Both the position numbers and the translations under genes were made by a program. A stretch of 64,000 nt of DNA from Candidatus Gottesmanbacteria bacterium (GTDB lineage: Bacteria > Patescibacteriota > Microgenomatia > JAMCYU01): contig JAZDMI010000028.1 of the NCBI GenBank assembly GCA_043801155.1, positions 35,389 through 99,388 on the forward strand, given 5' to 3'. Below, in pieces: positions 17,318 to 42,212 of this stretch; within the stretch, counting starts at the first letter, position 1; each line of letters begins with the position of its first letter. Under the pieces are notes generated by a model. That model did not search any database. It was not told the DNA's origin and worked only from the letters and a program-made list of their open reading frames with translations.

Positions 17318-19669
17318 TCATAGCCTGGCTCTTTGGGCAATTTCCGCTTCAACGAGTTCTCGGGGTTTTCCGTATTTCAAGGAAGACAGTCTTTTTATGG
17401 CCTCGGCAACTTTTTGATTAGCAGCTTTTCTCTCGGCAGCTATGTCACGGGTCATATCAACTGAAAAAGGAGGAACCGTTTCCATATTGACAATCGTACG
17501 AATAAAGGCATTATAACGGTCAACATTGATAAGATCCGCTTCAGAAAAGACCGGTTGAAACTCATGCTGGATGAAGTTGGCATCAGTAACTCCGACCCTA
17601 AAAGCAACCAGGGTACCAACGTTGCCAAAAACCGCGTTTTTAACTTCCTCTTCCATCTGACCAATAAACTGATTGGCAACGGTAATCGATAAATGATATT
17701 TTCTAGCTTCAGAAAGCATGGTGGCAAAATCAGGCGTAGCAAAATTTTGAAACTCATCAACATACAAAAAGAAGTCGCGTCGTTTCTCTTCAGCTACGTC
17801 AGTTCGCGACATGGCGGCCATTAAAATCTTCGGAACAATGATTGTTCCCAAAAAGCTGGTGTTTTCTTCTCCGATTTTGCCTTTGGCCAAATTGATCAAG
17901 ATTATTTTGCCCTCGTCCATGGCTTTTCTGAAATCAAAAGCTGTTTGCGATTGGCCGATAATGTTTCTGATAAGCTTATTGGTAACGAATCGGCCAAACT
18001 TGGAAACAATATAATCTAGTACTTCTGATTTATGGAAATCGGCTGTCTGAGCAATCTGATCCGTCCAATAACGGCGAACCATCGGATCAGTAACTTTCGG
18101 TAATAATTCCTGGACAAATGAGGAATCGGTCAAGGCCCGCACCACCTCAACAAAGGTGCTTCCCGGCTCTGCCATAACTGTCAAGATGGCATTTCTGATG
18201 GCATGTTCAAATCTTGGTCCGATGATACCGGTTTTATAAGGATCATAAAGCTTGTACATCAAACCAACAATTGAAGTTGTCACCATATGTTGTTGCTGCT
18301 CGGTATAAGCCTCAATCATATTAAGACCCATGGGTCGATCGGTATTTGAAGGATCAAAATAGATAACGTCTTCTGCCCTTTCCGGTGGAATCATGGGCAG
18401 GATTTTATCAATGGTATCGTGGGGATCAATAAAACAAATTCCCTCACCGTTTCTGATATCCTGCAATATCATTGAACTTAAAAGCTCTGATTTGCCGACA
18501 CCGGTTTTACCAATAACATAAACATGGCGGCTGCGATCCTCTTTGCCAATATAGATCGGTCTTTTAATCCCCCGATAAACGCTGTTACCTAAAAATAGGC
18601 CTGCGGTAGCAATTTGTTGGGGTGCCGGTGCCCGTTTGGCATTAAGCCAGAAAATATGAGGAGTTTCTACCTGTTTATTGGGAAAATGAAAAATCGTGGC
18701 CAACTCTTCACTATTTAAAACTGAGGTTTTGGCAAAAAACGGCGGATTAAATAATGGAAGATAACGATAAATGAAATCAACCATGAATAGTCTTTTAAAA
18801 ACAAGCTTGGCCTTTTTAAAACCATTTAGATCAGAGGAAAATTGTTCAAAGGCACCTACCAGATTTTGTAAATGAGCCTTGGCGGATTCTTCTGTATTTG
18901 AAGAAACAACAATTCTGATCGAGGTCTGAAAACCCGGCTTGCTGCATTTTTGATCAACCATTTCTAAAACCTTAGGGTCAACCGTATACTTAGCCTTTTC
19001 CGGATCGGATTCTCTCCTCTTAACTTTACCGATATAACCGCGGCCGGTGTCCCGCCATTTATTTTTCGCCGGAGAAATCATTATTTGGATAACTGCTCCT
19101 TCTCCCTCCCCCATTTTAGCCAAACCAGAAGTAATTAAAGATAAGGGGTCGGTTGGCAGGTCTTTATAGATTTTTATAGGGAAATAGTTAATATTTTTTA
19201 GTTTTAAAGAGGCAAAAGCGACTTTGCCATTCTCCGAGAAAATATTATATTCATCAATTTCTTTAATTTCGGCTCCGGGATAAGCACCATTGATTTGCTT
19301 TTCCACCAGGTCTTTATAATTTTTATGACAGTAAACATAAAAACGGATATCCTCTTTTTTACCGACGATTTCAAAAGAGACTTGTTCTTCAGTTTTTAAA
19401 AATGAGAAAAAACCGGATTTTTTTAGGGAATAAAGGCTGCTGGCCATCTGCTCGGCAGCATCAATCTTAATCTCATTATCCCGAGGAAGAGCTACTTGTA
19501 AAAGCACAGAATTTAAAGATTTTTCTTCACGATGGCGATATTTCCACAGTAGAAAAATATAATAGACTACCAAGATTAATCCGGCCAAAGCTAGAATAGC
19601 CACGGTCATACTTAGGATAAAGACTTCGGCTCGATAAATTAAATCACTAAACAGTGCGCTTGGATCCAT
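17318..19669 (-). CDS. Membrane-anchored P-loop ATPase of the FtsK/HerA/TraG-TraD (type IV coupling protein-like) superfamily.
   Basis: N-terminal transmembrane segment. Walker A HVYVIGKTGVGKSELL, Walker B FFLYVDEFQNF, and an ARKYHLSITVANQ motif typical of TraD/VirD4/DUF87-type ATPases. Confidence 0.55.
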   Translation of the reverse strand: MDPSALFSDLIYRAEVFILSMTVAILALAGLILVVYYIFLLWKYRHREEKSLNSVLLQVALPRDNEIKIDAAEQMASSLYSLKKSGFFSFLKTEEQVSFEIVGKKEDIRFYVYCHKNYKDLVEKQINGAYPGAEIKEIDEYNIFSENGKVAFASLKLKNINYFPIKIYKDLPTDPLSLITSGLAKMGEGEGAVIQIMISPAKNKWRDTGRGYIGKVKRRESDPEKAKYTVDPKVLEMVDQKCSKPGFQTSIRIVVSSNTEESAKAHLQNLVGAFEQFSSDLNGFKKAKLVFKRLFMVDFIYRYLPLFNPPFFAKTSVLNSEELATIFHFPNKQVETPHIFWLNAKRAPAPQQIATAGLFLGNSVYRGIKRPIYIGKEDRSRHVYVIGKTGVGKSELLSSMILQDIRNGEGICFIDPHDTIDKILPMIPPERAEDVIYFDPSNTDRPMGLNMIEAYTEQQQHMVTTSIVGLMYKLYDPYKTGIIGPRFEHAIRNAILTVMAEPGSTFVEVVRALTDSSFVQELLPKVTDPMVRRYWTDQIAQTADFHKSEVLDYIVSKFGRFVTNKLIRNIIGQSQTAFDFRKAMDEGKIILINLAKGKIGEENTSFLGTIIVPKILMAAMSRTDVAEEKRRDFFLYVDEFQNFATPDFATMLSEARKYHLSITVANQFIGQMEEEVKNAVFGNVGTLVAFRVGVTDANFIQHEFQPVFSEADLINVDRYNAFIRTIVNMETVPPFSVDMTRDIAAERKAANQKVAEAIKRLSSLKYGKPRELVEAEIAQRARL

Positions 19670-19764
19670 ATTCTTATTATATATGATTACATATCAGACA
19701 ATGTGGAGTGAAAAAATTCATCACTGCTAGCCCAAGTATTTTTCGTGCCGACCTCAGCAAAACG

Positions 19765-20265
19765 TCATTTAAATACAACCCTAATAATTCTGCCATGAAC
19801 TTTTTTTAATCGAATATGTACTTTCTTAAGTTGTCTTATACACCACTCCACTAGCCATCGCAAACTCGTGATGACCGGTGCCGTTGTTGCGGTTACAATT
19901 TTATCATCGTTTATAGGTAAATTAGCGGTAATTGGAGTAACTGGTTGATTAATATCACTTGGAACCACACCCATTTTTTGGACTGGTTCTGATATCTCCA
20001 CTTGTTCTTTTTTTACTTCGATACCAGCTTCTTTTACTTCAGGTGCCAGCTCCATTTCTTTTCTTAATTCCTCTAAGGCTGTTTCGTCTTGTTGGGCAAA
20101 AATTTCTTTTTCCTTTGCGCCAATGCTTGTCCCCTGAGGTTTTGCTGCTGATGGAACAGGCATATCGGGAGGTAACATCTGTGGTATTGGATTGTTGCTT
20201 GTCTGGTTGGTTTTATCGATGACCTTTGTTTTTTTTGATGTATTAGGCAGTTTAACCATACCCAA
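19765..20265 (-). CDS. hypothetical protein (166 aa)
   Basis: ORF only. No motif recognised. Confidence 0.4.
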   Translation of the reverse strand: MGMVKLPNTSKKTKVIDKTNQTSNNPIPQMLPPDMPVPSAAKPQGTSIGAKEKEIFAQQDETALEELRKEMELAPEVKEAGIEVKKEQVEISEPVQKMGVVPSDINQPVTPITANLPINDDKIVTATTAPVITSLRWLVEWCIRQLKKVHIRLKKVHGRIIRVVFK

Positions 20266-20274
20266 ATTCTAACA

Positions 20275-21141
20275 CTAGCCCAGGTATTTCTCAACTAATT
20301 TTACTTCCCCCAAAATCTCTTGCTCAGTAACCTCAGCTGAATGTTCAAGGATTAATATCGGCATCGGTGCTAACTTTTTTATTCCCTTAAACATTTTGTC
20401 CAAATTAAGTATTCCCTGCCCCAAAACCCGATGGTCATGTAATTTTTGATTAACATCATCAATATGCATTTCAATAATTCTTGGGCCAAAATCAAAGAAT
20501 TTATAACAATCGTCTTTATGAACAATATATCCATGGCCAAAATCAAAAAGAAAATTCAGATCAGGGAATTCATTTAAAAAATTCTCAAATTCAGAGAAAT
20601 TAGTTAGCGTTGTTGACGTACCTTCCCAACCAATAATATTTTCTAAAGCAACTTTAAGATGATTTTCTTTGGCTTTAATAAGCATCAAGCCTAAAAATTC
20701 TTTCATATTATTCAAAGCCTTTGGTTGAGGAATTTTATCAACCGACACAAATTCTTTAAAACCACCCCATTGCTTAGATATGCCTTTATAGGTAAAGGTC
20801 GAATTTAAGCCGGTATGAAAACTAATAATTCTGCTATTTAAAATCTTAGCCGCCTTAAAAATTGCATCAATAACCTGCTGGTTTTCATTAGATAATCCTT
20901 GGGCAGAGTTGGAAAAAAAATTACCAAGAACCGGCGGAAAGAAACAATGCTGGGTAAAAGTAGCATCAGGAAAATCGTGACGGATATTATTAATAGTTGC
21001 AAAAAGATTACCTTCAAGGCTATGATTTGCTCCCAGTTCAATTAAACGAAAGCCCAATTCGTATGCTCTTTTTACTGAATCGTAAATAGAAAATCCTCTA
21101 GCGCTGAAGTAAGACGTGGAAAGACCTAAGTTTTGCAGCAT
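20275..21141 (-). CDS. xylose-isomerase-like TIM-barrel protein (sugar-phosphate isomerase/epimerase family)
   Basis: GFRLIELGANH..HTGL..LALENI..FDFGHGYI pattern of the AP-endonuclease-2/xylose-isomerase TIM-barrel family. It overlaps the upstream ORF by 44 nt, so the true start may lie downstream. Confidence 0.5.
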   Translation of the reverse strand: MLQNLGLSTSYFSARGFSIYDSVKRAYELGFRLIELGANHSLEGNLFATINNIRHDFPDATFTQHCFFPPVLGNFFSNSAQGLSNENQQVIDAIFKAAKILNSRIISFHTGLNSTFTYKGISKQWGGFKEFVSVDKIPQPKALNNMKEFLGLMLIKAKENHLKVALENIIGWEGTSTTLTNFSEFENFLNEFPDLNFLFDFGHGYIVHKDDCYKFFDFGPRIIEMHIDDVNQKLHDHRVLGQGILNLDKMFKGIKKLAPMPILILEHSAEVTEQEILGEVKLVEKYLG

Positions 21142-21631
21142 ACAAAGATTTTACCACTTCTACGATGCCAAATGAAACCGGCACGAAGAATAGATTACCC
21201 AATAAATTCAATTTCAAGAAAGGTATCCCCATAATATAGGCTTCTATTAAACCGCCAAGTGTCCTTGGATACATGCCCCAACTGTCCAGCGCCCAAACGC
21301 CGAAGTTTGTCCACAGGAAGAAAAAGACACTGGCAAAAATACCAGCGCCCGCTGCTCGTATGATTTTCCCTTTTAGGTTACCTAAGTAACCCAAACAACC
21401 TACGACTAAATAAGCACTCCAGGTAAAAAGAAAAATATTGGTATTACCAATTATTGTGTCAGACAAAACCATAATCGCAAAAGGAACTAAAATTGCGTAT
21501 TTTTTACCTAAATATGCTCCGGCTAAAAGAGAAGCCGCGGTTACAAATTCAATATTCGGAGCAATATGGCCGACAGTTCGTAGAATTATGGCGATTGATA
21601 TTAATATAGCAGCAAAAATAATTTTTTTCAT
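21098..21631 (-). CDS. Small polytopic membrane protein (177 aa), ECF-transporter S-component or BtuM-like.
   Basis: About 6 predicted transmembrane helices and a conserved Cys in VVGCLGY. It lies in a B12-riboswitch-controlled operon. Confidence 0.45.
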   Translation of the reverse strand: MKKIIFAAILISIAIILRTVGHIAPNIEFVTAASLLAGAYLGKKYAILVPFAIMVLSDTIIGNTNIFLFTWSAYLVVGCLGYLGNLKGKIIRAAGAGIFASVFFFLWTNFGVWALDSWGMYPRTLGGLIEAYIMGIPFLKLNLLGNLFFVPVSFGIVEVVKSLYAAKLRSFHVLLQR

Positions 21632-21676
21632 CTTAGTTATTCTCCTTTTGGATATTAACTGATATTAATAATAATT

Positions 21677-23011
21677 TCAAGTCCCTTTTGCCAGCCAAAA
21701 TTTTAAAGCAATTAAAATCAAAATCCCTCCAGGAATTATTAACCATATTTTTTTAGAATTTGACTTTTGATTTTCTTCTACTTGATTCTTTTCCTTCGTT
21801 TGACTACTTACAGTTGCTTCTCCTAGAACTTGGGGGGTTGGACTAGGATAAGTATAAATAATTTGTGGTGATGGACTAGGCACCGATGACGACGTCGGTG
21901 TTGATGATGATGAAGGACTCGGCGACGGATCAGCAGACGGAGTTGGGGTCGGTGTAGGACTGGGTGAGGGACTTGGCGTGGAAGTCGGACTGGGGGTTGG
22001 AGTTGGGGTCGGCGTAGGACTGGGTGAGGGTTCGACTGACGGAGTGGGCGATGGACTTGCAGACGGTGTAAAAATATTCAATATCCAACTTTTACCTAAA
22101 AGGGCAATAATAGATTGAGCCGTTGTGGTTGTGTCTTCGCCGCTCCAGGTTAAAAAACCTCCATCTGTCTGTTGATTAGTAATAAGCCAGTTTCTGGCAT
22201 TAATGGCTTGGTCAGAATTTCCCAGTCCTAAAACATTTAAAGCCATCAGTCCCCAAGAAGTCGTATCGCTATCGCTAGTCCCCGACCAGCCGGGAAATCC
22301 ACCATCAGCATTTTGATGAACTAAAAGATAATCTCTAGCTAGCAAGATGGCATTGTCCAAACCATCGTTAGTTAAATCATTGTCTTTAGCTGCTTGTAAT
22401 GATTGTATGGCCGCGGCTGTCATGTCAATGGTCGTTCCGCAATAAGCACAAGTCGTATCCGGCGACCAGCTAAAACCACCATCAGATGCCTGATGAGTAA
22501 TAATAAAATTAAGAGTGTCTTTCTTAACTTGTAAATCAGAACTAACCCCACAACTAATTAAGGCTAAAAGTCCGAAGAAATCTTCATTAAGCGAAGTTAT
22601 ATCGCCAATTTGCTGGTTATTGTAAAAACTTTCTAATTTTTGTACGTAATTTACCCCATTAAAATTTGTCGGGTCATCACCTATTGCCACAATGGCCAAA
22701 ATTCTTGATTCCCAATCAGTGGCCGAACTATTATCCCCAGGTTTATCGTTTAAAAGAAAATCCCGTAAAGAAGATGAGTTAGTCGAAATTTTTACATCTG
22801 CCGGATTGATATTATTAGCCATAAAAGCGATGGCTGACCATTGGGAAGGACTGGAAAAACCATTAGTAATTTTTCCGGTTGCATCCTGCTTAGATTTTAA
22901 AAAGTTAAGACCATTATCAATAACTGCGTCTGCCAGGGCAATTCTAACAGTTAAAAAAAATAAAATAGCAATTAATAGAACAGTTTTTTTCATGAGCCTA
23001 AATATTTCCAT
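21677..23011 (-). CDS. Cell-surface protein. Signal peptide, then alpha/alpha-toroid repeats (prenyltransferase/squalene-cyclase-like QxxDGGF/W), a Pro/Ser/Thr-rich linker, and a C-terminal transmembrane anchor.
   Basis: Repeats [19 protein letters not shown] and [10 protein letters not shown]. Linker [31 protein letters not shown].... C-terminal [24 protein letters not shown]. Confidence 0.6.
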
Positions 23012-23592
23012 TCAATCTTGTCGCCATTATTAGCTTTAATATAACTGCATCCCTGGGCCGGAGACACACTATTGATCGTATAAGTCCACCAAACAGAATT
23101 TTCCTTACCAATTCCATTAATCTGATAGACAGCAAAGCTACCCAAAGAATTATTGAATTGCATATTAAGACTATCAATCTTCCCCTGTTCTTTGGCTTTA
23201 GTTAATACATCACACTGATTATTTCCCTGGTCAATATTGACTGTAAAGCTTGAACCGCCATTAATTGACAGATTAATTTGTAACGGCTGACTAGCTGGTG
23301 GAGGATTAGCCATGGGACTAGCTTCGGGAGATGGCGAGTTGGAATTCGCCGGTACATTAGAACTCTCAACTAATGGAGTCGGATTAGGACTGGAAATTTG
23401 AACAACCAGAGATGAAGTTACAACTGCAGATATAGATGGTGAATTCTTTGGTTTAGCAGATGGTTCTTCTTTTATCTGGACTCCGGATACTTGACTATTA
23501 TTTTTCTTTTTAACTTCGGGATAAAGAGAAAAAGCAATTAAGCCAAGTCCAATAATAAAAATAATTAAAGCGATTAGTCGTTTTTTATTCAT
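22990..23592 (-). CDS. DUF4430-like protein (transcobalamin-like C-terminal beta-domain), with N-terminal transmembrane segment and S/P-rich linker.
   Basis: C-terminal ..[33 protein letters not shown] matches the DUF4430 pattern W.Y.vNg...G...y.l.dGD.I.W.Y. It is the first gene after the B12 riboswitch. Confidence 0.55.
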
Positions 23593-23595
23593 AAC

Positions 23596-23778
23596 CTTCT
23601 CGTTTTCCCCTCGAGAAGGTTATCATCGGCCACTAAAAAAGACCCTTGCTCGAGAGATTCCTTAAGACGGTTCCTGACTTTGGTTCGCCGTAGCTTAATG
23701 CGAAGGCGACCTTTTACAGTTGCGGCACAGTCCCAGATTCTCACTGGGTTCCCGTAACCTTAAGGACCAATTTAAAAA
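23596..23778 (-). ncRNA. Cobalamin (AdoCbl) riboswitch, with an expression platform that sequesters the Shine-Dalgarno of the 22990-23592 gene.
   Basis: Minus strand reads CCTTAAGG(P1)..ACGGGAACCCAGTGAGAATCTGGGACTGTGCCGCAACTGTAAAAGG...AAGTCAGGAACC(B12 box)..CTTAAGG(P1'). Then CCTTCTCG-AGGGGAAAA-CGAGAAGG pairs over the GAGAAGG Shine-Dalgarno just before the ATG at 23592. Confidence 0.75.
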
Positions 23779-23812
23779 TAACAATCTTTAACCTTTTTGT
23801 CAATCCTTAATT

Positions 23813-24133
23813 TCAATAATCCATTCTTCCAATCTTATGAGCTCTTCTTGATAATCTTTGGGCTTTCCTACGGTTACCAGCCTTTAGTTCTAATTTTGCT
23901 TTTTCTTCAAAAGCTCCCATCATCATGGCTGCCTTATAATCTCCTGATATTCCATGATCTACCCCTGGATACTTAGAAGCTTTTATGTAAACAGCTGTTC
24001 CCACACGATCTCCTATTTCCGAAAACTTCCACGCTGTATTCCAAGCTTCTACCCCACCTGCTCCTTCTATAAAACAAATCTCATGTCCTTTAGCAAATTG
24101 ATTAATTATATCTCTAACTCTTTCATGACTCAT
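23813..24133 (-). CDS. hypothetical small protein (106 aa), paralog of the ORF at 24199-24561
   Basis: Strong AAAGGAGG Shine-Dalgarno. Shares VEAWNTAW..GD..TA and a basic helical C-terminus with its neighbour. Locally higher GC. Confidence 0.5.
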   Translation of the reverse strand: MSHERVRDIINQFAKGHEICFIEGAGGVEAWNTAWKFSEIGDRVGTAVYIKASKYPGVDHGISGDYKAAMMMGAFEEKAKLELKAGNRRKAQRLSRRAHKIGRMDY

Positions 24134-24198: not shown

Positions 24199-24561
24199 CT
24201 AAATCATCCTTGATATTTCTTCTGCTCTGGTAGAAAGAAATGTTGCTTTTGCAGCATCTCTTCTTTTCCGTGCTTTCTCTGCGGCTTTATGAAAGGCTTC
24301 CGACAGTATTACGGCTCTCGGATCGGGTAGCGGTTCCTCCCTAACTGGGGGTACTTCTACTACTTGCAAAAAAGCCGCTGTCCGAGTTAAGTCACCTTCT
24401 CTAGCATATGATCGAGCTAAATCCCACGCAGATAATCCATGAGCATTATGGGATACCAAATTTCTAGCATATCCCTCATGATCCATATTATACTGAGTCG
24501 TTAAACCCTCAATTACCTGGGCAATTGTCTCTGTTGACGAATCAACTGTTTCGCGTGGCAT
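24199..24561 (-). CDS. hypothetical small protein (120 aa), paralog of the ORF at 23813-24133
   Basis: The 5' leader is a near-duplicate of its neighbour's (CAAATTTTCTGTTCAAAGGAGGAGAAAAATATG versus CAAAATTTACTGTCCAAAGGAGGCGAGAAATATG). Confidence 0.5.
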   Translation of the reverse strand: MPRETVDSSTETIAQVIEGLTTQYNMDHEGYARNLVSHNAHGLSAWDLARSYAREGDLTRTAAFLQVVEVPPVREEPLPDPRAVILSEAFHKAAEKARKRRDAAKATFLSTRAEEISRMI

Positions 24562-24621: not shown

Positions 24622-25143
24622 TCAATAATCAATTCCTTTTTTTGCTTTTCCGTTTTTTTTAAATGGGTGTTTGATTTCTTTGAATTCGGTTACCAGGTCA
24701 GCTACTTCGACAAGCTCAGTATGAGCCCACCGACCGGTTAAGACTAAATCCACGCCTTTTTCTTTTGCAATCATAATTAATTCCAAAACTTTATTTACTT
24801 TTATCAATCCGAATTTTAAAGCTACATTTATCTCGTCCAAAACAATGATGTCGAATAGTGAATTATAAATAGCAGATAGCGAATAATCAAACCCCTTTTT
24901 TGCTTCTAAATAATCTATTTCTCGGAGGTGTTTTAGGTCAACGAGTTCTTTTGTCCCAAATCTTTTAATTCTTAACTCATAATTCATAATTCTTAATTCA
25001 TTTAACACTTTTACCTCTCCACTGATTCTTTTTTTTAGGAATTGAACTATAAGAACCCTCTTCCCCCACCCCACTGACCGCAAGATCAGTCCCAATGCAG
25101 CCGTGGTTTTCCCCTTTCCATTCCCGGTATAAACAATAATCAT
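24622..25143 (-). CDS. cobA: cob(I)yrinic acid a,c-diamide / corrinoid adenosyltransferase (CobA/BtuR/CobO type)
   Basis: P-loop VYTGNGKGKTTAALG, VQFLK, LDEIN, and the C-terminal LVLTGR..ADLVTEFKEIKH characteristic of the CobA family. Confidence 0.85.
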   Translation of the reverse strand: MIIVYTGNGKGKTTAALGLILRSVGWGKRVLIVQFLKKRISGEVKVLNELRIMNYELRIKRFGTKELVDLKHLREIDYLEAKKGFDYSLSAIYNSLFDIIVLDEINVALKFGLIKVNKVLELIMIAKEKGVDLVLTGRWAHTELVEVADLVTEFKEIKHPFKKNGKAKKGIDY

Positions 25144-25874
25144 ATTCCCCTAACCTCTGTTTTTGGTATAAATTTTCTTAGTTCTGGTAAAACTTTATCA
25201 TAAAAACTTTTAGGATACGGTTTTATTTTCTCAAAACTAGAATCCAAGCATTTATCCGGCCGAAAATTTTGTAAAAACCACTTGAATTTAGGGTTTAGGG
25301 TCGAGGGTTTAGGGTATAGTGAATTTAACTCTTGAGCCATCGCAATAAGATCTTCCTTTATATGAAGTGTCGGTACAACTGTAGTTCGTAGTTCAAAAGG
25401 CATTTCGTTTTTTACCAAAATATTTATTATCTTTTTAACTGTACCCTTTACCCTATACCCTATATCCTTCCCAATATATTTGTAATATTTATAAAATGGT
25501 CCCTTGTAATCTACTGCTATATAATCCACTAATCCATTCTTTATTAGCTCTTCTACCATTCCTGGATTGGTTCCATTAGTATCAAGCTTTACCAGATATT
25601 TCATATCTTTAATCTTGGCAATAAATTCTGGTAAGTCGTTTTGGATTGTTGGTTCGCCGCCGGTAATAACGACTCCCTCAAGCTTCCCTGCTCTGCTTTT
25701 TAGGAACTTAAATATTTCTTCTTCGTCAATGTTTGGTAGTTTATCATTGTCTATTACTAAGTCTGGATTTTGACAAAAGGGACAACGGAAATTGCATCCG
25801 GAAGTGAAAATAATACCAGCAATCTTACCTGGGTAATCCAGAAGGGTGGTTTTTTGCAGACCCCGAATGTTCAT
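25140..25874 (-). CDS. nrdG: anaerobic ribonucleoside-triphosphate reductase activating protein (radical SAM)
   Basis: GCNFRCPFCQNP CxxxCxxC radical-SAM motif of NrdG/PflA-type activases. It overlaps the cobA start by 4 nt, which indicates operon coupling. Confidence 0.85.
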   Translation of the reverse strand: MNIRGLQKTTLLDYPGKIAGIIFTSGCNFRCPFCQNPDLVIDNDKLPNIDEEEIFKFLKSRAGKLEGVVITGGEPTIQNDLPEFIAKIKDMKYLVKLDTNGTNPGMVEELIKNGLVDYIAVDYKGPFYKYYKYIGKDIGYRVKGTVKKIINILVKNEMPFELRTTVVPTLHIKEDLIAMAQELNSLYPKPSTLNPKFKWFLQNFRPDKCLDSSFEKIKPYPKSFYDKVLPELRKFIPKTEVRGI

Positions 25875-25898
25875 AGGATAGTTATAATTAACTATAAA

Positions 25899-28040
25899 TT
25901 ATTGTAGGGGCAGACTTTCTTTTAGTTGTAATTGTTTATTGTATGTTTTCCGATCTTTAAATTCTGTTTGTTTCCCGGCATTCCATTGGACAATTGGCCG
26001 AAGATACCCAACCACTCTGGACCATACTTCGCATGTTTTTCCGCATTCTGGACAATTTTTTTGTTCACCTTTAAGATATCCATGCGTCGGACATACGCTA
26101 AACGTTGGTGTTAACGTATAATACGGTAAATGATATGTCTTAGCTATTTTTTTAACTAATGCTTTAACTGCCTCTTTGTCAACCATGCTTTCCCCTAAAA
26201 ATCCGTGTAACACCGTTCCGCCGGTATATTTAGTTTGCAATTCGTCCTGCAAATCAAGTGCCTGGAAAATGTCATCGGTAAAATTAACCGGCAGATGGGT
26301 TGAATTAGTATAATAAGGTTCAGCGTGATCGGTTTTAATTTCTTCTTCATTCGCACAAATTATTTCCGGATAATTTTTCTTATCCAGTTTGGCTAAATTG
26401 TAAGCGGTCCCCTCAGCTGGCGTGGCCTCAAGATTAAACATTTGATCAGTTTCCTTTTGATAGATTAAGATTTTCGTTCGCATAAAATCCATAACGTCAA
26501 TAGCAAAGGCTTTCCCCTCCTCTTCGCCAATACTCTTACCTATAAAATTAACTAAGGATTCATTCATGCCAATAAGGCCAATAGTATTGAAATGATTTTT
26601 CCAATATTCACCAAAGCGGTCTTTAATGGCGGCTAAATAAACTTTAGAATACGGATAAAGCCCTTCTTCAGTAAACTTTTCCACAATGGCTCGCTTAAGC
26701 AGTAATGCTTCTTTAGCCATATCCATAAGATGTGATAATTTTTCAAAATAATCCTTTTTAGTTTTGGATAAAAATCCCAGCCGGGGAAGGTTTATCGTTA
26801 CTACTCCGAGACTACCGGTTAACGGATTGGAGCCAAACAGCCCACCCCCCCGCTTAACTAACTCCCGATTGTCTAAACGCAACCGACAACACATACTTCG
26901 GGCATCTTCGGGCTTCATGTCCGAATTAATAAAATTAGAAAAGTATGGAATCCCGTATTTCCGCGTCATTTCCCAAATACCATCAAAGTCCGGATTATCC
27001 CAAGTGAAATCCTTGGTGATATTATAAGTGGGAATCGGGAAGGTAAATACCCTGCCTTTAGCATCTCCCTCAAGCATGACCTCGGCGTAGGCTTTATTAA
27101 AAAGACTGACTTCTTTTTGAAAATCGGTATAACTTTTATTTTGTGGTTTACCACCAATCATCACCGGCTCTTTTTCTAAAAATTTAGGAACGACCAGATC
27201 TAAAGTTATATTGGTAAAGGGAGTCTGAAAACCAACCCGGGTCGGAACGTTCATATTGAAAACAAATTCTTGTAGGGCTTGTTTAATTTCTGGATACGAT
27301 AATTTATCATAGGCAATAAAAGGAGCCAGCAAAGTATCGAAATTAGAAACAGCTACGGCTCCGGCAATTTCTCCCTGCAGAGTATAAAAGAAGTTAACTA
27401 ACTGACCCAATGCTGTGCGAAAATGTTTTGGCGGCCGGCATTCAATCTTTCCCGGTACTCCGCCGAACCCGCGGAAGAGCAGATCCCGAAGATCCCAACC
27501 ACAACAATAAGCAGCCAACATTTGTAGGTTATGAATATGGAGATCACCGTTAATATGAGCTTGTCTAATTTGCGGAGGATAGATTTTATTTAACCAGTAA
27601 TTGGCGGAAATTTCCGAGGCAACATGATTATTTAAACCCTGAAGAGAATAGGCCATGTTACTATTTTCTCTAACGCGCCAATCAAGTTTTGAAAGATAAT
27701 TACCAACTAATTCATCAGAATCAATTAATGAGTATATATCGCGGGTTCGTCGTTTTAATTCACGGTACAAAATATATGCCCGCGCTACATTATAATGGCC
27801 ATGATGCATTAATACTTCTTCGACAATATTTTGAATTTCTTCAACTTGAGGAATAAGCTTACCATCATAACGGATCTCAAGCTTTTCAATTACTTTGTCG
27901 GCTAAATATTTAACTCTTTCGCCGTCTTTTTCACCAATAGCTTGGAAGGCTTTTTCTAAAGCCTTAATAATCCTTTGAGGATTAAATCTAACCAACCTGC
28001 CGTTACGTTTTTGAATTTTAGTCACGGTTATTTTTATCAT
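25899..28040 (-). CDS. nrdD: anaerobic (class III) ribonucleoside-triphosphate reductase
   Basis: N-terminal ATP-cone, a C-terminal zinc ribbon CPTHG..CPECG, and the glycyl-radical region SRVVGYLRP. Confidence 0.9.
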   Translation of the reverse strand: MIKITVTKIQKRNGRLVRFNPQRIIKALEKAFQAIGEKDGERVKYLADKVIEKLEIRYDGKLIPQVEEIQNIVEEVLMHHGHYNVARAYILYRELKRRTRDIYSLIDSDELVGNYLSKLDWRVRENSNMAYSLQGLNNHVASEISANYWLNKIYPPQIRQAHINGDLHIHNLQMLAAYCCGWDLRDLLFRGFGGVPGKIECRPPKHFRTALGQLVNFFYTLQGEIAGAVAVSNFDTLLAPFIAYDKLSYPEIKQALQEFVFNMNVPTRVGFQTPFTNITLDLVVPKFLEKEPVMIGGKPQNKSYTDFQKEVSLFNKAYAEVMLEGDAKGRVFTFPIPTYNITKDFTWDNPDFDGIWEMTRKYGIPYFSNFINSDMKPEDARSMCCRLRLDNRELVKRGGGLFGSNPLTGSLGVVTINLPRLGFLSKTKKDYFEKLSHLMDMAKEALLLKRAIVEKFTEEGLYPYSKVYLAAIKDRFGEYWKNHFNTIGLIGMNESLVNFIGKSIGEEEGKAFAIDVMDFMRTKILIYQKETDQMFNLEATPAEGTAYNLAKLDKKNYPEIICANEEEIKTDHAEPYYTNSTHLPVNFTDDIFQALDLQDELQTKYTGGTVLHGFLGESMVDKEAVKALVKKIAKTYHLPYYTLTPTFSVCPTHGYLKGEQKNCPECGKTCEVWSRVVGYLRPIVQWNAGKQTEFKDRKTYNKQLQLKESLPLQ

Positions 28041-28483
28041 GTTAGTTTCTCAATTGTTTCTTCAAAGTCTGATAAATCTTCAAAATCAAGATAGACGCTG
28101 GCGTATCTTAGATAAGCAACCTTGTCAATTTTTTTTAATTTTTTTAAAACCATATTGCCAATTGTTTTTGAGGGAATCTCGGTTGATTCTTTACCTCGCA
28201 GTTCTTTCTCAATGTCATCAACTAAACTCTCAATTAGATCAATACTAACAGGTCTTTTCTCACAAGCTTTTATAATACCGATACGCAGTTTTTCTCTAGA
28301 AAATGATTCCCGACGCCCATCTTTTTTAATTACTAGAAGCGGTATATTCTCTACCCTCTCATAAGTTGTAAACCGCTTCTGGCATTGAATACATTCTCTG
28401 CGCCTGCGTGTCACTGCCAACTCTTCGCTTTCTCTAGTTTCAACTACCTCTGTTTCCTGACTTTCACAATATGGACACTTCAT
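28037..28483 (-). CDS. nrdR: transcriptional repressor NrdR
   Basis: MKCPYCESQETEVVETRE...RRRECIQCQKRFTTYERVE zinc ribbon followed by an ATP-cone. Confidence 0.9.
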   Translation of the reverse strand: MKCPYCESQETEVVETRESEELAVTRRRRECIQCQKRFTTYERVENIPLLVIKKDGRRESFSREKLRIGIIKACEKRPVSIDLIESLVDDIEKELRGKESTEIPSKTIGNMVLKKLKKIDKVAYLRYASVYLDFEDLSDFEETIEKLT

Positions 28484-37489: not shown

Positions 37490-39811
37490 TTGCCAATGAA
37501 AAAGAAAAGAACTAAGAAATCTTTGCTTCGCTCACGAAAGTCCATTAAGTTTCTTACTTGGTGGCATAGTTTATCGACCAGAAAAAAAGACATTATTGGT
37601 TTAGGTCTTATCTTTTCCTTTTTCTTATTTGTCTTTTATGTTTTTATTTTAAAGGATCTTCCCCTACCCACATCATTAGCTAGTCGGGATATTCTCCAAA
37701 CAACGCAAATCTTAGACCGAAACGGCAAATTACTTTTTAATATTTATACTGACCAGGATCGAACTATTGTAAATTTAAGTGAAGTTCCTTTACAACTCCG
37801 ACAGGCAACAATTGCTATTGAGGATAAGGATTTTTACAAACATGGCAGTATTGCTTTTGAAGGGATTATTAGGGCGCTCCGGGAAATTGTTATTCATCGT
37901 CAACTCCAGGGAGGTTCAACCATTACCCAACAATTAGTTAAGTCCGCCCTTTTAACACCGGAACGAACGATTCAGCGAAAAATCAAAGAGGCAATTTTAT
38001 CTTTTTTTGTCGATAAGATTTATACCAAAGACCAAATACTAGAAATGTATTTGAATCAAGTTTCTTATGGTGGAACAGCTTGGGGTGTTGAAGCAGCTTC
38101 AAATAAGTATTTTGGTAAACTAGTTAAGGATTTAAATCTAGCTGAATGTTCGCTCCTGGCTGGTCTACCAGCTGCTCCCACATACTATTCTCCTTATGGG
38201 GCTCACCCGGAATTAGCCAAGCAAAGACAAGCAGAGGTACTGCGCCGAATGGCTGAAGATGGTTACATTTCTTCCTCTGATATTCAACAAGCAAAAAACT
38301 ATAAATTAACTTATAAACCACAGGCCGGAATTAAAGCTCCGCATTTTGTTATGTATGTTAAAGATCAGTTGGTTAAAAAATACGGCGAAAAGTTAGTTGA
38401 ACAAGGAGGTTTAAAGGTAATTACCACCCTTGATTTAGATATCCAAGAATTTGCCCAAAATACGGTCGCTACTGAAGTTGCCAGTTTAAAAGAACTTAAG
38501 GTCGGCAACGGGGCGGCGTTAGTTACCCGCCCGCCAACCGGAGAGATTTTGGCAATGGTAGGCTCTAAAGATTATTTCGGAGCGGAAGCGGAGAAAGTAG
38601 CGTCTAGCGCCAGCGACGCGTCTTTTGATGAAACCTTCCAGGGTAATTTTAATGTCACTATTGCTCATCGTCAACCAGGTTCATCGATCAAACCAATTAA
38701 TTATGCAGTCGGTTTAGCCAGCGGTAAAATTACACCAGCTTCCCTTATTTTAGACATTCCAACTTGTTTTTCTGTTTTGGGCCAATCTCTTTATTGCCCG
38801 CAAAATTATGATGGACAGTTTCATGGAGCGGTACAAATGCGTTTTGCTTTAGGTAATTCCTATAATATCCCGGCGGTTAAAACACTGGCTCTAAACGGTG
38901 TTGATCAAATGATTGCTACCGCGTCGGCTATGGGTATTACAACTTTCAAGGACCCATCACGCTATGGTTTGTCACTCACTTTAGGCGGTGGTGAAGTAAT
39001 GATGACTGATATGGCAACTGCTTTTGGCGTTTTTGCTAATACCGGTATTAAAAAAGACTTAGTATCTATCCTAAAAGTTGAAGATAATCAAAAAAAGGTG
39101 CTTGAAGAATATCAAAATCCAAATTGGCAAAAGGACCTTAAAGATCTCTCCTACCCTTCGGTTTTACAAATTGACGGGCCAAGAGTATTATCAACTGAAG
39201 TCAGTTTTCTAATTTCTCATATACTCCTTGACCAAAATGCCAGATCGGCAGCCTTTGGACAAAGTTATTTACCTATTTCCGGTAAAGCTGTTTCTGTTAA
39301 AACAGGTACCACTGATGATAAGCGTGATAACTGGACGATTGGTTTTACTCCCAATTTCTTAGTCGCTACCTGGGTTGGCAATAACAATAACCAACCGATG
39401 AATCAATGGTTAACCTCGGGCGTTACCGGTGCAGCTCCCATGTGGAATAAGATTATGACCTATATTTTGAAAAATGAACCTGATTTATGGCCCAAAAAAC
39501 CTGAAGGCGTCGTCGGAGCGACTATTTGTTCTCTATCCGGTAAATTGCCTGGTGATTCAAATTGTCCTACCCGTTTTGAATATTTTATCAATGGAACTGT
39601 ACCGCAAGAAACAGAAAATTTAAAAAGACAAATTTTAGTAGAAAAAGGTACTGACCGGCAGGCAATTTTTATGCAAAACCCTACCCAACCGCCGATGCCA
39701 ACTGATAATTTTGAAATGAAAGAAAAACAGGTACTCTCTGACTGGTTTACTCCAGAATATTGTCTCGATTGTCCCCACGGCGGCGACAGACCAGTGATTG
39801 TCAAACCATAA
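37490..39811 (+). CDS. penicillin-binding protein 1A (bifunctional transglycosylase and transpeptidase)
   Basis: GT51 motifs EDKDFYKHGS and QGGSTITQQLVKS, and the transpeptidase SSIKP (SxxK) and KTGTT motifs. Confidence 0.9.
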   Translation: MPMKKKRTKKSLLRSRKSIKFLTWWHSLSTRKKDIIGLGLIFSFFLFVFYVFILKDLPLPTSLASRDILQTTQILDRNGKLLFNIYTDQDRTIVNLSEVPLQLRQATIAIEDKDFYKHGSIAFEGIIRALREIVIHRQLQGGSTITQQLVKSALLTPERTIQRKIKEAILSFFVDKIYTKDQILEMYLNQVSYGGTAWGVEAASNKYFGKLVKDLNLAECSLLAGLPAAPTYYSPYGAHPELAKQRQAEVLRRMAEDGYISSSDIQQAKNYKLTYKPQAGIKAPHFVMYVKDQLVKKYGEKLVEQGGLKVITTLDLDIQEFAQNTVATEVASLKELKVGNGAALVTRPPTGEILAMVGSKDYFGAEAEKVASSASDASFDETFQGNFNVTIAHRQPGSSIKPINYAVGLASGKITPASLILDIPTCFSVLGQSLYCPQNYDGQFHGAVQMRFALGNSYNIPAVKTLALNGVDQMIATASAMGITTFKDPSRYGLSLTLGGGEVMMTDMATAFGVFANTGIKKDLVSILKVEDNQKKVLEEYQNPNWQKDLKDLSYPSVLQIDGPRVLSTEVSFLISHILLDQNARSAAFGQSYLPISGKAVSVKTGTTDDKRDNWTIGFTPNFLVATWVGNNNNQPMNQWLTSGVTGAAPMWNKIMTYILKNEPDLWPKKPEGVVGATICSLSGKLPGDSNCPTRFEYFINGTVPQETENLKRQILVEKGTDRQAIFMQNPTQPPMPTDNFEMKEKQVLSDWFTPEYCLDCPHGGDRPVIVKP

Positions 39812-39887
39812 AAAATTATTTTTCTTCACCCTGAGTTTACCGAAGGGTCTTCACAAAGCCAAAAACTTGTGCTAATATGCTTGCGTC

Positions 39888-42212
39888 ATGCCCAGAAAGA
39901 CGAAAATGAAGCGTCAATTACAAGATAAACCTCTTGATTTAATACTCGATAGCATCTTTATTCCTCTTATTTTTATTGCCGTTATCTTAATCAAAATTGG
40001 CAATATCCCGAGATTAATTTTAAGAATTTTGTTTCAATTTTTATTATGGTTTGGCAACTTAAATTTAAAAATATTTACCAAAATAGCTGCCTCGGTAGTT
40101 TATCTATTTCATCATCTTAAAATAAAACAGCCCCATATAAAATTGCCTTCTTTACCAAAGATTAAATTACCAAAATATACAATTCAAAAACCAACTTTAC
40201 CATCAATTATTATCCCCCCATTACCGTCTGTTTATCTTCCCGAAATCCCCTTCCCGACATTATCTCTTAAGATACGCTGGTTTATTATTGGTGTTTTTTT
40301 TACGTTAATTTTTATTTTTTTACCTTTCCAAATTTGGTCTTGGTTATCGCAACTACCCAATCCCCAGTTGTTAACTAATAGAGAGATTCCGCTTACCAGT
40401 AAAATTTTTGACCGTCATGGTACCCTACTTTATGAAATTTATACTGACCAAAATCGTACACCGGTTACTCTCGCTAATATTCCTCAAGATTTAATCAAGG
40501 CAACCATTGCCATTGAAGATAAGCAATTTTATAATCACCCGGGATTTTCTTTACGGGGTATTCTGCGGGCCGCTAAAGAAACTATTGTTAATAAAAGACT
40601 TCAGGGTGGATCAACTATTACCCAACAACTTGTAAGAAGTGCCCTCTTAACTCCTCAACCAACCTTAGAAAGAAAAATCAAAGAAATACTTTTGTCATTT
40701 TGGGCAGAAAGACTTTTTACTAAAGAGCAAATTCTCGAAATGTATTTTAATCAAGTTCCTTACGGTGGCACCAGCTGGGGAATTGAGGCCACTACAGAAA
40801 CATATTTTGGTAAATCGGTTAAGAATCTTTCCTTAGCCGAAGCGTCATTTTTGGCAGCACTACCGGCTTCTCCCAGTGTTTATTCTCCCTTTGGCACTCA
40901 TCCGGAACAGGGTTTGGCTCGGCAAAAAGAGGTTTTAAGGCTTATGCGGGAGCAAGGCTATATATCCAATGAGCAGGAAATTATGGCTCTAAACCAAAAA
41001 CTGGTTTTTCTCCCAGCTAAAACTAATATTAAGGCGCCGCATTTTGTTATGTATATCAAGGATCTATTGGAGAAAAAATATGGGACGCGAAAAGTCGCCC
41101 AGGGAGGTTTACAGGTTATTACCAGTTTAGACCTTTCAATCCAGGAAATGGCTCAAAAGATTGTTACTGATGAAATTACTAATTTGTCTTCGCTTAATGT
41201 TGGCGACGGAGCTGCCTTAATAACCGATCCAAAGTCCGGCCAAATTTTGGCTATGGTCGGCTCCAAAGATTATTTTGATCTTGATGCTGGCGGTAATGTT
41301 AATATAACTTTATCTCTTCAACAACCTGGTTCATCGATTAAGGTCGTTAACTATACCTTGGCCTTAGAAAAAGGCCTGACAGCAGCTAGTATATTAGATG
41401 ATTCACCAATAGCCTTTCAGGTGGCCAGCCAGCCAAATTATATCCCGGTTAATTATGACGGTAAATTCCATGGAAAAGTTACTTTACGGCAAGCATTGGC
41501 TAGTTCTTTTAATATTCCTGCCGTTAAAGTTTTGGCTAGTTTAGGGGTAGAAAATATGATTAATCAAGGACGGTTAATGGGCATTACTACCTGGCGGGAC
41601 ATTGACCGTTATGGTTTATCTTTAACCTTAGGCGGTGGTGATGTAACCATGCTGGATATGGCCAAGGTTTACGGAGTATTAGCTGATCAAGGAAAGAGAC
41701 AAGATATAACACCCATTTTAAAAATTACCGATTATAAAAATCAAATCTTAGAACAAGCATCACCCCAGGATGAGAATGCAGTCGTTAACCCGGGGGTGGC
41801 TTTTATCTTAGCTAATATCTTAAGCGATGATAACGCCAGGAGTGCTGCTTTTGGAACAAATTCACTCCTTAACATTCCCGGAAAATCCGTATCCGTTAAA
41901 ACCGGAACTAGTAATGACCTCCGTGATAATTGGGCGATTGGTTTTACACCATCATATGTGGTAACTACGTGGGTTGGTAATATCGATAACAGTCCGATGG
42001 GAAGGATTGCTTCGGGAATAACTGGAGCCACTCCAATCTGGCACAATATTATGGTTAATTTGCTAAAAGATAAGCCGAATGAACCAATATTGCCCCCAGA
42101 AAATGTTGTCAGAATTGATGCTTGTGGCCGAAGCGAATATTTCTTAAAAGGAACAGAAAAAAATATTAGTTGTGCACCACCACCTACTCCATCCCCCAGC
42201 CCGGTTCAATAA
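39888..42212 (+). CDS. penicillin-binding protein 1A paralog with an extended Pro-rich N-terminus
   Basis: EDKQFYNHPG, QGGSTITQQLVRS, SSIKV and KTGTS motifs. It lies in tandem with the preceding PBP1A gene. Confidence 0.9.
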   Translation: MPRKTKMKRQLQDKPLDLILDSIFIPLIFIAVILIKIGNIPRLILRILFQFLLWFGNLNLKIFTKIAASVVYLFHHLKIKQPHIKLPSLPKIKLPKYTIQKPTLPSIIIPPLPSVYLPEIPFPTLSLKIRWFIIGVFFTLIFIFLPFQIWSWLSQLPNPQLLTNREIPLTSKIFDRHGTLLYEIYTDQNRTPVTLANIPQDLIKATIAIEDKQFYNHPGFSLRGILRAAKETIVNKRLQGGSTITQQLVRSALLTPQPTLERKIKEILLSFWAERLFTKEQILEMYFNQVPYGGTSWGIEATTETYFGKSVKNLSLAEASFLAALPASPSVYSPFGTHPEQGLARQKEVLRLMREQGYISNEQEIMALNQKLVFLPAKTNIKAPHFVMYIKDLLEKKYGTRKVAQGGLQVITSLDLSIQEMAQKIVTDEITNLSSLNVGDGAALITDPKSGQILAMVGSKDYFDLDAGGNVNITLSLQQPGSSIKVVNYTLALEKGLTAASILDDSPIAFQVASQPNYIPVNYDGKFHGKVTLRQALASSFNIPAVKVLASLGVENMINQGRLMGITTWRDIDRYGLSLTLGGGDVTMLDMAKVYGVLADQGKRQDITPILKITDYKNQILEQASPQDENAVVNPGVAFILANILSDDNARSAAFGTNSLLNIPGKSVSVKTGTSNDLRDNWAIGFTPSYVVTTWVGNIDNSPMGRIASGITGATPIWHNIMVNLLKDKPNEPILPPENVVRIDACGRSEYFLKGTEKNISCAPPPTPSPSPVQ

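Follow-up and report, generated by a model that had tools for sequence, protein, structure and literature searches.

A 64,000-nucleotide stretch of a Candidatus Gottesmanbacteria contig (the window) carries a cobalamin riboswitch followed by four minus-strand genes, g1 to g4, which encode a DUF4430 protein, a surface protein with an alpha/alpha toroid, a DUF6580 polytopic membrane protein and a TIM barrel (Table 1; positions are on the minus strand unless marked otherwise). Taken together with related loci, the evidence makes it probable that this is a vitamin B12 (corrinoid) scavenging operon of a bacterium of the Patescibacteria, or candidate phyla radiation (CPR), which would be switched off by B12. 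The products of g1 and g2 would then be counterparts of the two domains of the eukaryotic B12 carriers transcobalamin, intrinsic factor and haptocorrin. To our knowledge, no bacterial transcobalamin counterpart of this kind has been characterised biochemically.

Table 1. The B12 locus of the window, in the direction of transcription, with the adenosyltransferase gene last (nt, nucleotides; aa, amino acids; ORF, open reading frame)
Feature	Position	Strand	Remarks
Promoter-like site	23775..23803	-	TTGACA-17 nt-TATTTT with TG extension; 10/12 in consensus scan, consensus match only
Cobalamin riboswitch aptamer, short form	23648..23778	-	RF00174 and own model built from relatives
Small hairpin directly 3' of P1, loop CGAGCA	23642..23656	-	Recurs in relatives
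Sequestor hairpin, 12 bp	23591..23623	-	23623-23612 pairs with 23602-23591; in minimum free energy and centroid structures
g1, CbrS-like DUF4430 protein	22990..23592	-	200 aa; PF14478
g2, surface alpha/alpha-toroid protein	21677..22993	-	438 aa; longest ORF to 23011 (444 aa)
g3, DUF6580 polytopic membrane protein	21098..21631	-	177 aa; PF20221, E 6e-38
g4, cytoplasmic metal-dependent TIM barrel	20275..21141	-	288 aa; AP_endonuc_2/xylose-isomerase-like, E 2e-17
cobA, CobA/CobO/BtuR ATP:corrinoid adenosyltransferase	24622..25143	-	PF02572, E 2e-53

The operon and its riboswitch

The stop codon of g1 and the start codon of g2 overlap as ATGA at 22993-22990, and a start at this overlap gives g2 438 aa, identical to the NCBI Candidatus Gottesmanbacteria protein P0001. 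A gap of 45 nt separates g2 from g3, which is preceded by an AAGGAG Shine-Dalgarno sequence, and g3 and g4 overlap by 44 nt; these junctions bear out the four-gene operon of overlapping or nearly overlapping genes described in a first-pass annotation. Topology was read from hydropathy and composition. In the g1 protein, residues 6-24 form a membrane anchor at the N-terminus, and a stalk of ~75 aa rich in Ser and Pro leads from it to the DUF4430/SLBB domain (~105-200). The g2 protein runs from a signal peptide through a barrel (~21-305) and a Pro/Ser/Thr stalk of ~85 aa to the sequence QVLGE, after which come a transmembrane anchor at the C-terminus and a tail of basic residues. Several hydrophobic segments are present in g3, and g4 has no transmembrane segment.

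The riboswitch is the only one found in the whole window by Rfam cmscan, as an RF00174 match (40.7 bits, E 7.9e-07; gathering score 31.5) that spans the full model, 1-189, and confirms the element proposed upstream of the operon. The three strings quoted for it in the first-pass annotation were all located: the B12 box AAGTCAGGAACC at 23680-23669, the conserved core CCGCAACTGTAA, and the P1 strand CCTTAAGG at 23765-23758, whose partner strand lies at 23666-23660. The aptamer is a short form, with 17 nt in place of 53 in the Rfam consensus; its 3' end stands 56 nt from the g1 AUG. A covariance model that we built from the RF01689 aptamers of four relatives also matches it (23711-23753, 27.3 bits). 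The earlier designation as an adenosylcobalamin (AdoCbl) riboswitch holds as far as cobalamin; the AdoCbl class is not readable from a short aptamer whose relatives are of mixed types. If the promoter-like site is used, transcription would start at about the 5' end of P1.

Between the aptamer and g1 lies an expression platform that folds at -22.4 kcal/mol (z -2.35), and its 12-bp hairpin covers both the Shine-Dalgarno sequence AGAAGG (23600-23595) and the AU of the g1 AUG (23592-23590). The sequestration of the Shine-Dalgarno claimed earlier is thus seen, in a hairpin of 12 bp that includes the AU of the start codon and not of 8 bp. The hairpin is not followed by a U-tract, and with the Shine-Dalgarno and AUG enclosed, control of translation is therefore plausible in the window; in some relatives (L036, L024 and L032; L numbers denote loci) a U-run follows the equivalent hairpin in the manner of a terminator, and transcriptional attenuation is plausible there. 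A second, smaller hairpin with a CGAGCR loop recurs at the equivalent position in L016, L012, L036, L032, L046, L029, L024 and L006 and is a candidate regulatory element, perhaps P13/L13-like. Its 5' half can pair instead with the 5' arm of the sequestor (-17.0 kcal/mol), and in the folding model the segment just 3' of P1, when paired in this way, is a candidate for the ON state. A kissing-loop between the aptamer loop UGCCG and the CGAGCR loop was considered and set aside, as the two can form no more than 4 bp, with an A bulged out; since neither loop varies, covariation is uninformative on this pairing.

Riboswitches of the same clan precede the DUF4430, toroid and DUF6580 genes (the module) in many related loci. 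At the Rfam gathering threshold, RF01689 stands before the first module gene in L005, L006, L010 and L016, and a scan of 12 Parcubacteria-type loci gave RF01482 in five, RF01689 in two and RF00174 in two. Our own model has 52 matches in 941 kb, all 52 on the strand of the module, and in 46 of 81 related loci a match precedes the first module gene at a distance of 0-213 nt. The curated Rfam models confirm 13 of these upstream matches, in RF00174, RF01482 and RF01689 (clan CL00101), and even weak matches of our model coincide with curated ones. L001-L003 have no riboswitch at the gathering threshold, and our model gives only weak matches there (23.7 and 20.6 bits), at the expected place. As judged from these matches, riboswitch control of the module is a conserved property that involves three aptamer classes.

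Three loci carry a second cobalamin-riboswitch-like element, found with our model at 24-41 bits (L027 7131-7206, L028 8375-8448 and L020 2457-2534), located downstream of PduO. Next to this element in L027 and L028, on its downstream side, is the gene of a conserved ~550-aa protein that has a CxxC...CxxC motif at its C-terminus and no Pfam match; the protein may also belong to the B12 regulon, or may be a substitute enzyme that works without B12. A different RNA, DUF3800-II of Rfam (68.1 bits against a gathering score of 43.2), lies at 5761-5827 of L004, ~2.5 kb downstream of the B12 module.

The DUF4430 and toroid proteins as putative carrier halves

Residues 135-197 of g1 match PF14478 (DUF4430) with 38.1 bits against a cutoff of 23.8, as the first-pass annotation had it, and the relation of this domain to the eukaryotic carriers is supported by profile searches. 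When a profile of stand-alone g1 homologues (A8) was searched against all PDB sequences, the top nine matches were all beta-domains of haptocorrin, transcobalamin or intrinsic factor (E-values of 4.3e-4 for haptocorrin, 6.9e-3 for the isolated transcobalamin beta-domain and 0.01 for intrinsic factor), and all nine lie in the carrier's C-terminal domain. A profile of the fusion family described below (A6) matches the isolated transcobalamin beta-domain 5no0 with an E-value of 6.6e-6. Since the nine best matches are the C-terminal domains of carriers, the DUF4430 domain of g1 and the beta-domain of transcobalamin, intrinsic factor and haptocorrin are, on profile evidence, homologous.

The g2 protein matches Prenyltrans (33.9 bits) and SQHop_cyclase_C (26.2 bits) of Pfam, both above cutoff, and its toroid is predicted confidently as an (alpha/alpha)6 barrel. 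An (E/Q)(V/I)LG motif is kept near its end (window ~21680-21830) and in most homologues (P0002-P0096; P numbers denote proteins), and after it come 25-45 residues of variable sequence, then a hydrophobic helix and a tail of basic residues; a C-terminus of this kind looks like a lineage-specific sorting or anchoring signal of Patescibacteria.

Comparative genomics provides what we regard as the decisive evidence that g1 and g2 would together form a split transcobalamin. A pattern scan of the GTDB species representatives returned 80 loci, almost all from Patescibacteria; ORFs were called in these and in three earlier loci and searched with iterated hidden Markov models. Of 84 loci, 78 have DUF4430 together with the toroid, as a gene or as a domain. 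The toroid gene is itself fused to DUF4430 in 44, either in the order of transcobalamin, toroid then DUF4430, with a linker of ~13 aa (31 loci) or in the reverse order (13 loci), and the transcobalamin-order fusion forms at least 455 clusters in the protein database. The other 40 are toroid-only, 39 of them plainly so and one, L036, with the toroid match split in two pieces; in nearly all of the 39 a DUF4430 gene lies immediately upstream, as in the window. These natural fusions give independent support for g1 and g2 as two halves of one carrier.

A full-length AlphaFold2 model of one fused relative, P0121, points the same way. Foldseek gives only structures of transcobalamin, intrinsic factor or haptocorrin among its 15 best PDB matches, aligned over both domains (420-440 columns) with E-values from 3.5e-12 to 7.5e-10, and prenyltransferases follow at 9e-7 or weaker. 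The earlier claim of two carrier halves in separate adjacent genes under B12 control is in keeping with the natural fusions, the Foldseek result and the conserved riboswitches. That a carrier can work as two chains is biochemically feasible, as the cleavage fragments IF30 and IF20 of intrinsic factor keep tight cobalamin binding and cubilin recognition (reviewed in PMC6257451).

The eukaryotic carriers share with the window proteins a homologous beta-domain and, in the alpha half, the same (alpha/alpha)6 fold, and the fused relatives share their alpha-then-beta order and have them as best Foldseek matches. They differ in that the window has two genes, in beta-then-alpha order, instead of a single alpha-linker-beta chain, and in that the halves are membrane-tethered on stalks and not soluble; delivery here would be to a membrane transporter and not to an endocytic receptor.

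Related bacterial proteins have been described before. Burroughs et al. (2007, Biol Direct 2:4, PMC1796856) defined the SLBB superfamily and reported secreted bacterial proteins in which a toroid carries an SLBB (DUF4430) domain at its N- or C-terminal end. Their operons often hold another SLBB paralogue, the hosts were Firmicutes and archaea that do not produce B12, and CbiO/CbiQ were neighbours; the authors predicted B12 scavenging and a lateral transfer of the toroid-SLBB combination to animals. Fusions in both orders and a second paralogue also occur in Patescibacteria, and function is there as here a prediction from sequence, whereas the present system has a patescibacterial host, separate halves in the window, a DUF6580 partner and a documented riboswitch. 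In Lactobacillus sakei, lsa1836-1840 form an ECF (energy-coupling factor) operon in which Lsa1839 is transcobalamin beta-like and Lsa1840 alpha-like, and a role in heme uptake has been argued (bioRxiv 10.1101/864751). Its separate adjacent alpha- and beta-like proteins next to an S-component have the split layout of g1 and g2; unlike the window, it has its own ATPase and T components, and no context of cobalamin riboswitch, NrdJ or adenosyltransferase is described for it.

With the SLBB-toroid proteins, the L. sakei halves and CbrT (see below) all published, the idea of a split carrier is sound, though not original. The new findings are that the system is abundant in Patescibacteria, that DUF6580 is a relative of CbrT, that riboswitch control is systematic and involves three aptamer classes, that both halves are tethered on stalks and that no ECF module is linked. 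In the searchable literature we found no paper on DUF6580, and none that treats cobalamin riboswitches or the uptake of B12 for Patescibacteria.

The presumed translocator, proposed mechanism and alternatives

In 39 of 84 loci the toroid gene is succeeded by a DUF6580 gene. When a DUF6580 profile was searched against the PDB at E<=10, the sole match was CbrT (6fnp_A, E 0.0043, over 146 of 174 profile positions), and the CbrT homologues P0319, P0321, P0355 and P0358 carry PF20221. ECF-CbrT has been shown experimentally to transport B12 and cobinamide (PMC5997447; PDB 6FNP). On this profile similarity g3 is a distant relative of CbrT, a B12-specific ECF S-component, and is presumed to be the corrinoid translocator. 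An archaeal contig (L085/L086, 5337-6657, with MCM and GatB/GatE-like neighbours) has adjacent DUF4430 and DUF6580 genes and no toroid, and the two-gene core accordingly extends beyond bacteria.

The first-pass annotation had placed g3 with both ECF S-components and BtuM. BtuM is a solitary S-component-like B12 transporter of Proteobacteria, whose gene stands under a B12 riboswitch and beside an adenosyltransferase gene, with no adjacent ECF module, and whose structure is deposited in the PDB. In these functional respects g3 resembles it, being a small polytopic protein with a B12 riboswitch, a nearby adenosyltransferase and no adjacent ECF module. No BtuM structure was matched in the PDB profile search at E<=10, and with CbrT as the sole match g3 is CbrT-like rather than BtuM-like; kinship with S-components holds at a distance, through CbrT, the score of g3 with ECF_trnsprt of Pfam (PF12822) being 18.1 bits (E 0.0028), below the cutoff of 30.7.

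The closest known arrangement is the nrdJ-cbrS-cbrT-pduO cluster of Lactobacillus (Rodionov 2009, as cited in Santos et al. 2018, eLife, PMC5997447). We checked the cluster of L. helveticus, which reads NrdJ-DUF4430-CbrT-PduO, cbrS being a DUF4430 protein of 132 aa. Common to both systems are a DUF4430 gene before a small S-component-type protein and flanking genes for NrdJ and an adenosyltransferase, and the Levybacteria locus L002 (NrdR-NrdJ-DUF4430-toroid-DUF6580-PduO) has the same order with the toroid gene inserted between cbrS and cbrT; a context of the nrdJ-cbrS-cbrT-pduO type is found in L002, L006, L011, L027, L028 and L032. Unlike CbrT, g3 falls in DUF6580 and does not pass ECF_trnsprt, no ECF module is known for the patescibacterial genomes, the module here is riboswitch-controlled, and the window itself has a class III NrdD/NrdG and a CobA-type adenosyltransferase.

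We propose that the operon works as follows. At low cobalamin the leader would fold so as to leave the g1 Shine-Dalgarno and AUG free, and the translationally coupled g1-g4 would be made. The proteins of g1, with its N-terminal anchor, and g2, with its C-terminal anchor, would be held outside the membrane on their long flexible stalks and would grip a single corrinoid, with the toroid face on one side of it and the beta-grasp domain on the other, as the carriers do with their alpha- and beta-domains. The corrinoid would be passed to g3, which would move it across the membrane as a CbrT-like, S-component-type protein, and inside the cell CobA would adenosylate it; g4 may process the imported corrinoid or be unrelated. 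Ample cobalamin would bind the aptamer, the 12-bp hairpin would shut over the Shine-Dalgarno and AUG, and synthesis would stop. Corrinoid binding, heterodimer formation, hand-over to g3, the energising of transport and the switching mechanism are the steps that we infer.

Several points weigh against this scheme. The repeats, linker, C-terminal anchor and fold expected of the toroid surface protein are all present in g2, but by sequence the toroid is closest to squalene-hopene/terpene cyclase repeats (1gsz, E 1e-24); the transcobalamin alpha-domain did not match it in PDB sequence or profile searches, no Cobalamin_bind match was obtained in the Pfam scan, and by sequence the alpha half does not detectably belong to the carriers' own alpha-domain family. 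No ECF energising module was seen in the window or beside the module in relatives, with no ECF genes within +/-8 kb in L001 and L002, and the CbrT of L. delbrueckii is non-functional without an ECF module (PMC5997447). For the similar L. sakei proteins, uptake of heme has been proposed. The 64-kb window encodes no B12-dependent enzyme, its ribonucleotide reductase being the B12-independent class III NrdD/NrdG; the retention of cobA, the riboswitch and an intact module speaks for a continued use of B12 by functions encoded outside the window.

The energising of import is where an alternative weighs most, and we give it slightly less than an even chance: g3 would then be a group-II ECF S-component of the usual kind, served by a shared EcfA/A'/T encoded elsewhere in the genome, like CbrT in Lactobacillus, and import would be neither 'minimal' nor solitary in the manner of BtuM. 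The only solved relative of g3 is CbrT, the module on which solitary CbrT of L. delbrueckii depends for growth is itself shared and unlinked (PMC5997447), and the L. helveticus cluster likewise has no ECF genes nearby. Against this stand the sub-cutoff ECF_trnsprt score of g3, the absence of EcfA/EcfT-like genes from the 64-kb window as well as from the flanks of L001 and L002, and the finding that 940 kb of flanks hold six ABC-like ORFs, none of them adjoining the module.

It is improbable, though it deserves some weight, that only g1 binds B12 and that the toroid, instead of closing a clamp, has some other surface job, such as docking to a cell wall or host or the binding of another ligand. 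The Lactobacillus clusters combine DUF4430 with CbrT and lack a toroid, the archaeal locus pairs DUF4430 with DUF6580 only, loci with a fusion mostly have another DUF4430 gene that stands free, the toroid is nearer to terpene cyclases than to the transcobalamin alpha-domain, and the two domains of the P0121 model are not docked as in holo-transcobalamin. These arguments meet the fusion of toroid and DUF4430 in more than half of the loci, in either order and through very short linkers, the near-universal adjacency of the two under the same riboswitch, and the Foldseek result, in which the best matches of the fused form are B12 carriers only, over both domains.

A ligand other than B12, either another tetrapyrrole such as heme or incomplete corrinoids (cobinamide) only, is very unlikely. 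It could appeal to the reported contribution of lsa1836-1840 to heme uptake (bioRxiv 10.1101/864751), to the carriage of cobinamide by ECF-CbrT and to the hint of corrinoid processing in a CbiR-like g4, whereas cobalamin riboswitches of three Rfam classes precede the module in dozens of lineages, its recurrent neighbours are the AdoCbl-dependent NrdJ and corrinoid adenosyltransferases, and no heme-related genes were seen near it. That g2 is a class II terpene cyclase or prenyltransferase-type enzyme acting on envelope lipids and merely sharing the operon is scarcely credible for a single toroid that is exported and tethered outside the membrane, has a B12-carrier domain as its fusion partner, scores 21-38 bits with NCBIfam models whose cutoffs are 322-851 (e.g. 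37.9 against 851) and has the family motif NDD (NED in the window), with no match to DxDD, the proton-donor motif of class II cyclases.

More speculatively, and we consider it doubtful, Patescibacteria, which cannot make B12, may possess a self-contained, ECF-free corrinoid machine in which a stalked transcobalamin, of one chain or two, hands B12 directly to a solitary, CbrT-derived DUF6580 protein; this very widespread family under riboswitch control, with its hundreds of fused forms, may also be the bacterial stock of the animal carriers, in place of the Firmicutes proposed in 2007. Should the tethered pair of g1 and g2 clamp B12 as proposed, it would be a tractable and abundant bacterial counterpart of transcobalamin and a natural two-chain version in which to study ligand-induced assembly of the carrier. 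The scavenging operon would, if real, explain the cofactor supply for the class II ribonucleotide reductases of ultra-small, B12-auxotrophic Patescibacteria, assign functions to DUF4430 and DUF6580 and supply sequences with which to test the acquisition of B12 carriers by animals from bacteria.

Genomic neighbourhood and the accessory gene g4

The adenosyltransferase gene cobA was correctly named in the first-pass annotation, to judge from its PF02572 match; with TIGR00708 it scores 152.5 bits, just below the cutoff of 167.75. In the relatives, a PduO-type adenosyltransferase flanks the module in 15 loci and the class II reductase NrdJ stands beside it in 16, in both cases within +/-6 kb, and L046 has an adenosyltransferase of the CobA type. 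Upstream of the module, the window has nrdR, nrdD (class III; PF13597, E 4e-199), nrdG and cobA at 24622-28483, in the place where relatives have nrdR-nrdJ, of the B12-dependent class II. The lineage seems to have swapped a B12-dependent for a B12-independent reductase while keeping the uptake module and the adenosyltransferase. The neighbourhood of the relatives is otherwise kept, with DUF5667, NrdR, a reductase, the module, a TraG-like gene, NUDIX and an integrase.

The TIM barrel g4 had been counted as an operon gene; its family assignment holds, its status as a conserved member of the module does not, as g4 is present in one of the 84 surveyed loci. The family is rare (39 representatives at E<=1e-10 among 1.84 billion proteins), its invariant residues are E35, E43, H65, H109, E167, D200, H203, H226 and E266, and the closest PDB structure is the uncharacterised MJ1311 (E 2.6e-18). 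CbiR is a cobamide-remodelling phosphodiesterase, and most cbiR genes lie beside cobamide genes (Mok et al. 2020, mBio, PMC7733943). Among 27 family members, 20 have CbiR as their nearest named NCBIfam, in no case above the cutoff: g4 scores 21 bits with NF041277, whose cutoff is 105, and the best family member, at E 1.7e-10, also stays below. Like CbiR, g4 belongs to the AP_endonuc_2 superfamily, keeps His/Asp/Glu metal ligands and, in the window and in L088/L089, lies beside B12 genes; unlike CbiR, it is far below the cutoff, and most of its homologues are not linked to B12. A homologue of 37% identity follows DUF6580 in L088/L089, in the same gene order as in the window, and three others (P0362, P0364 and P0367) lie among unrelated or sugar-nucleotide genes. 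With the equivalog cutoff missed and the B12 linkage inconsistent across homologues, g4 was rejected as a true CbiR, and none of CobS, CobT and CobU, which are needed to rebuild a cobamide, was seen in the window. From its distribution, g4 is a co-transcribed, lineage-specific accessory and not a conserved module member, and a role in corrinoid processing is possible, though rather unlikely.

Other genes around the module were noted in passing. Between cobA and the riboswitch promoter lie two ORFs of 106 and 120 aa (23813-24133 and 24199-24561), which are paralogues of each other (E ~1e-7), with no Pfam or NCBIfam match and no homologue in 83 related loci. After the B12 module, several Microgenomates have a TraG/VirD4-like ATPase of 783 aa (DUF87/TraG-D_C) preceded by a small ORF of 159-166 aa, with a tRNA, NUDIX and a tyrosine integrase further on. 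This block (window 17318-20265; L002 11800-14190; L006 7908-10743; L088 1337-4142) is syntenic across genera. On the plus strand, at 37490-42212, the window carries tandem genes for class A penicillin-binding proteins (transglycosylase and transpeptidase) of 773 and 774 aa.

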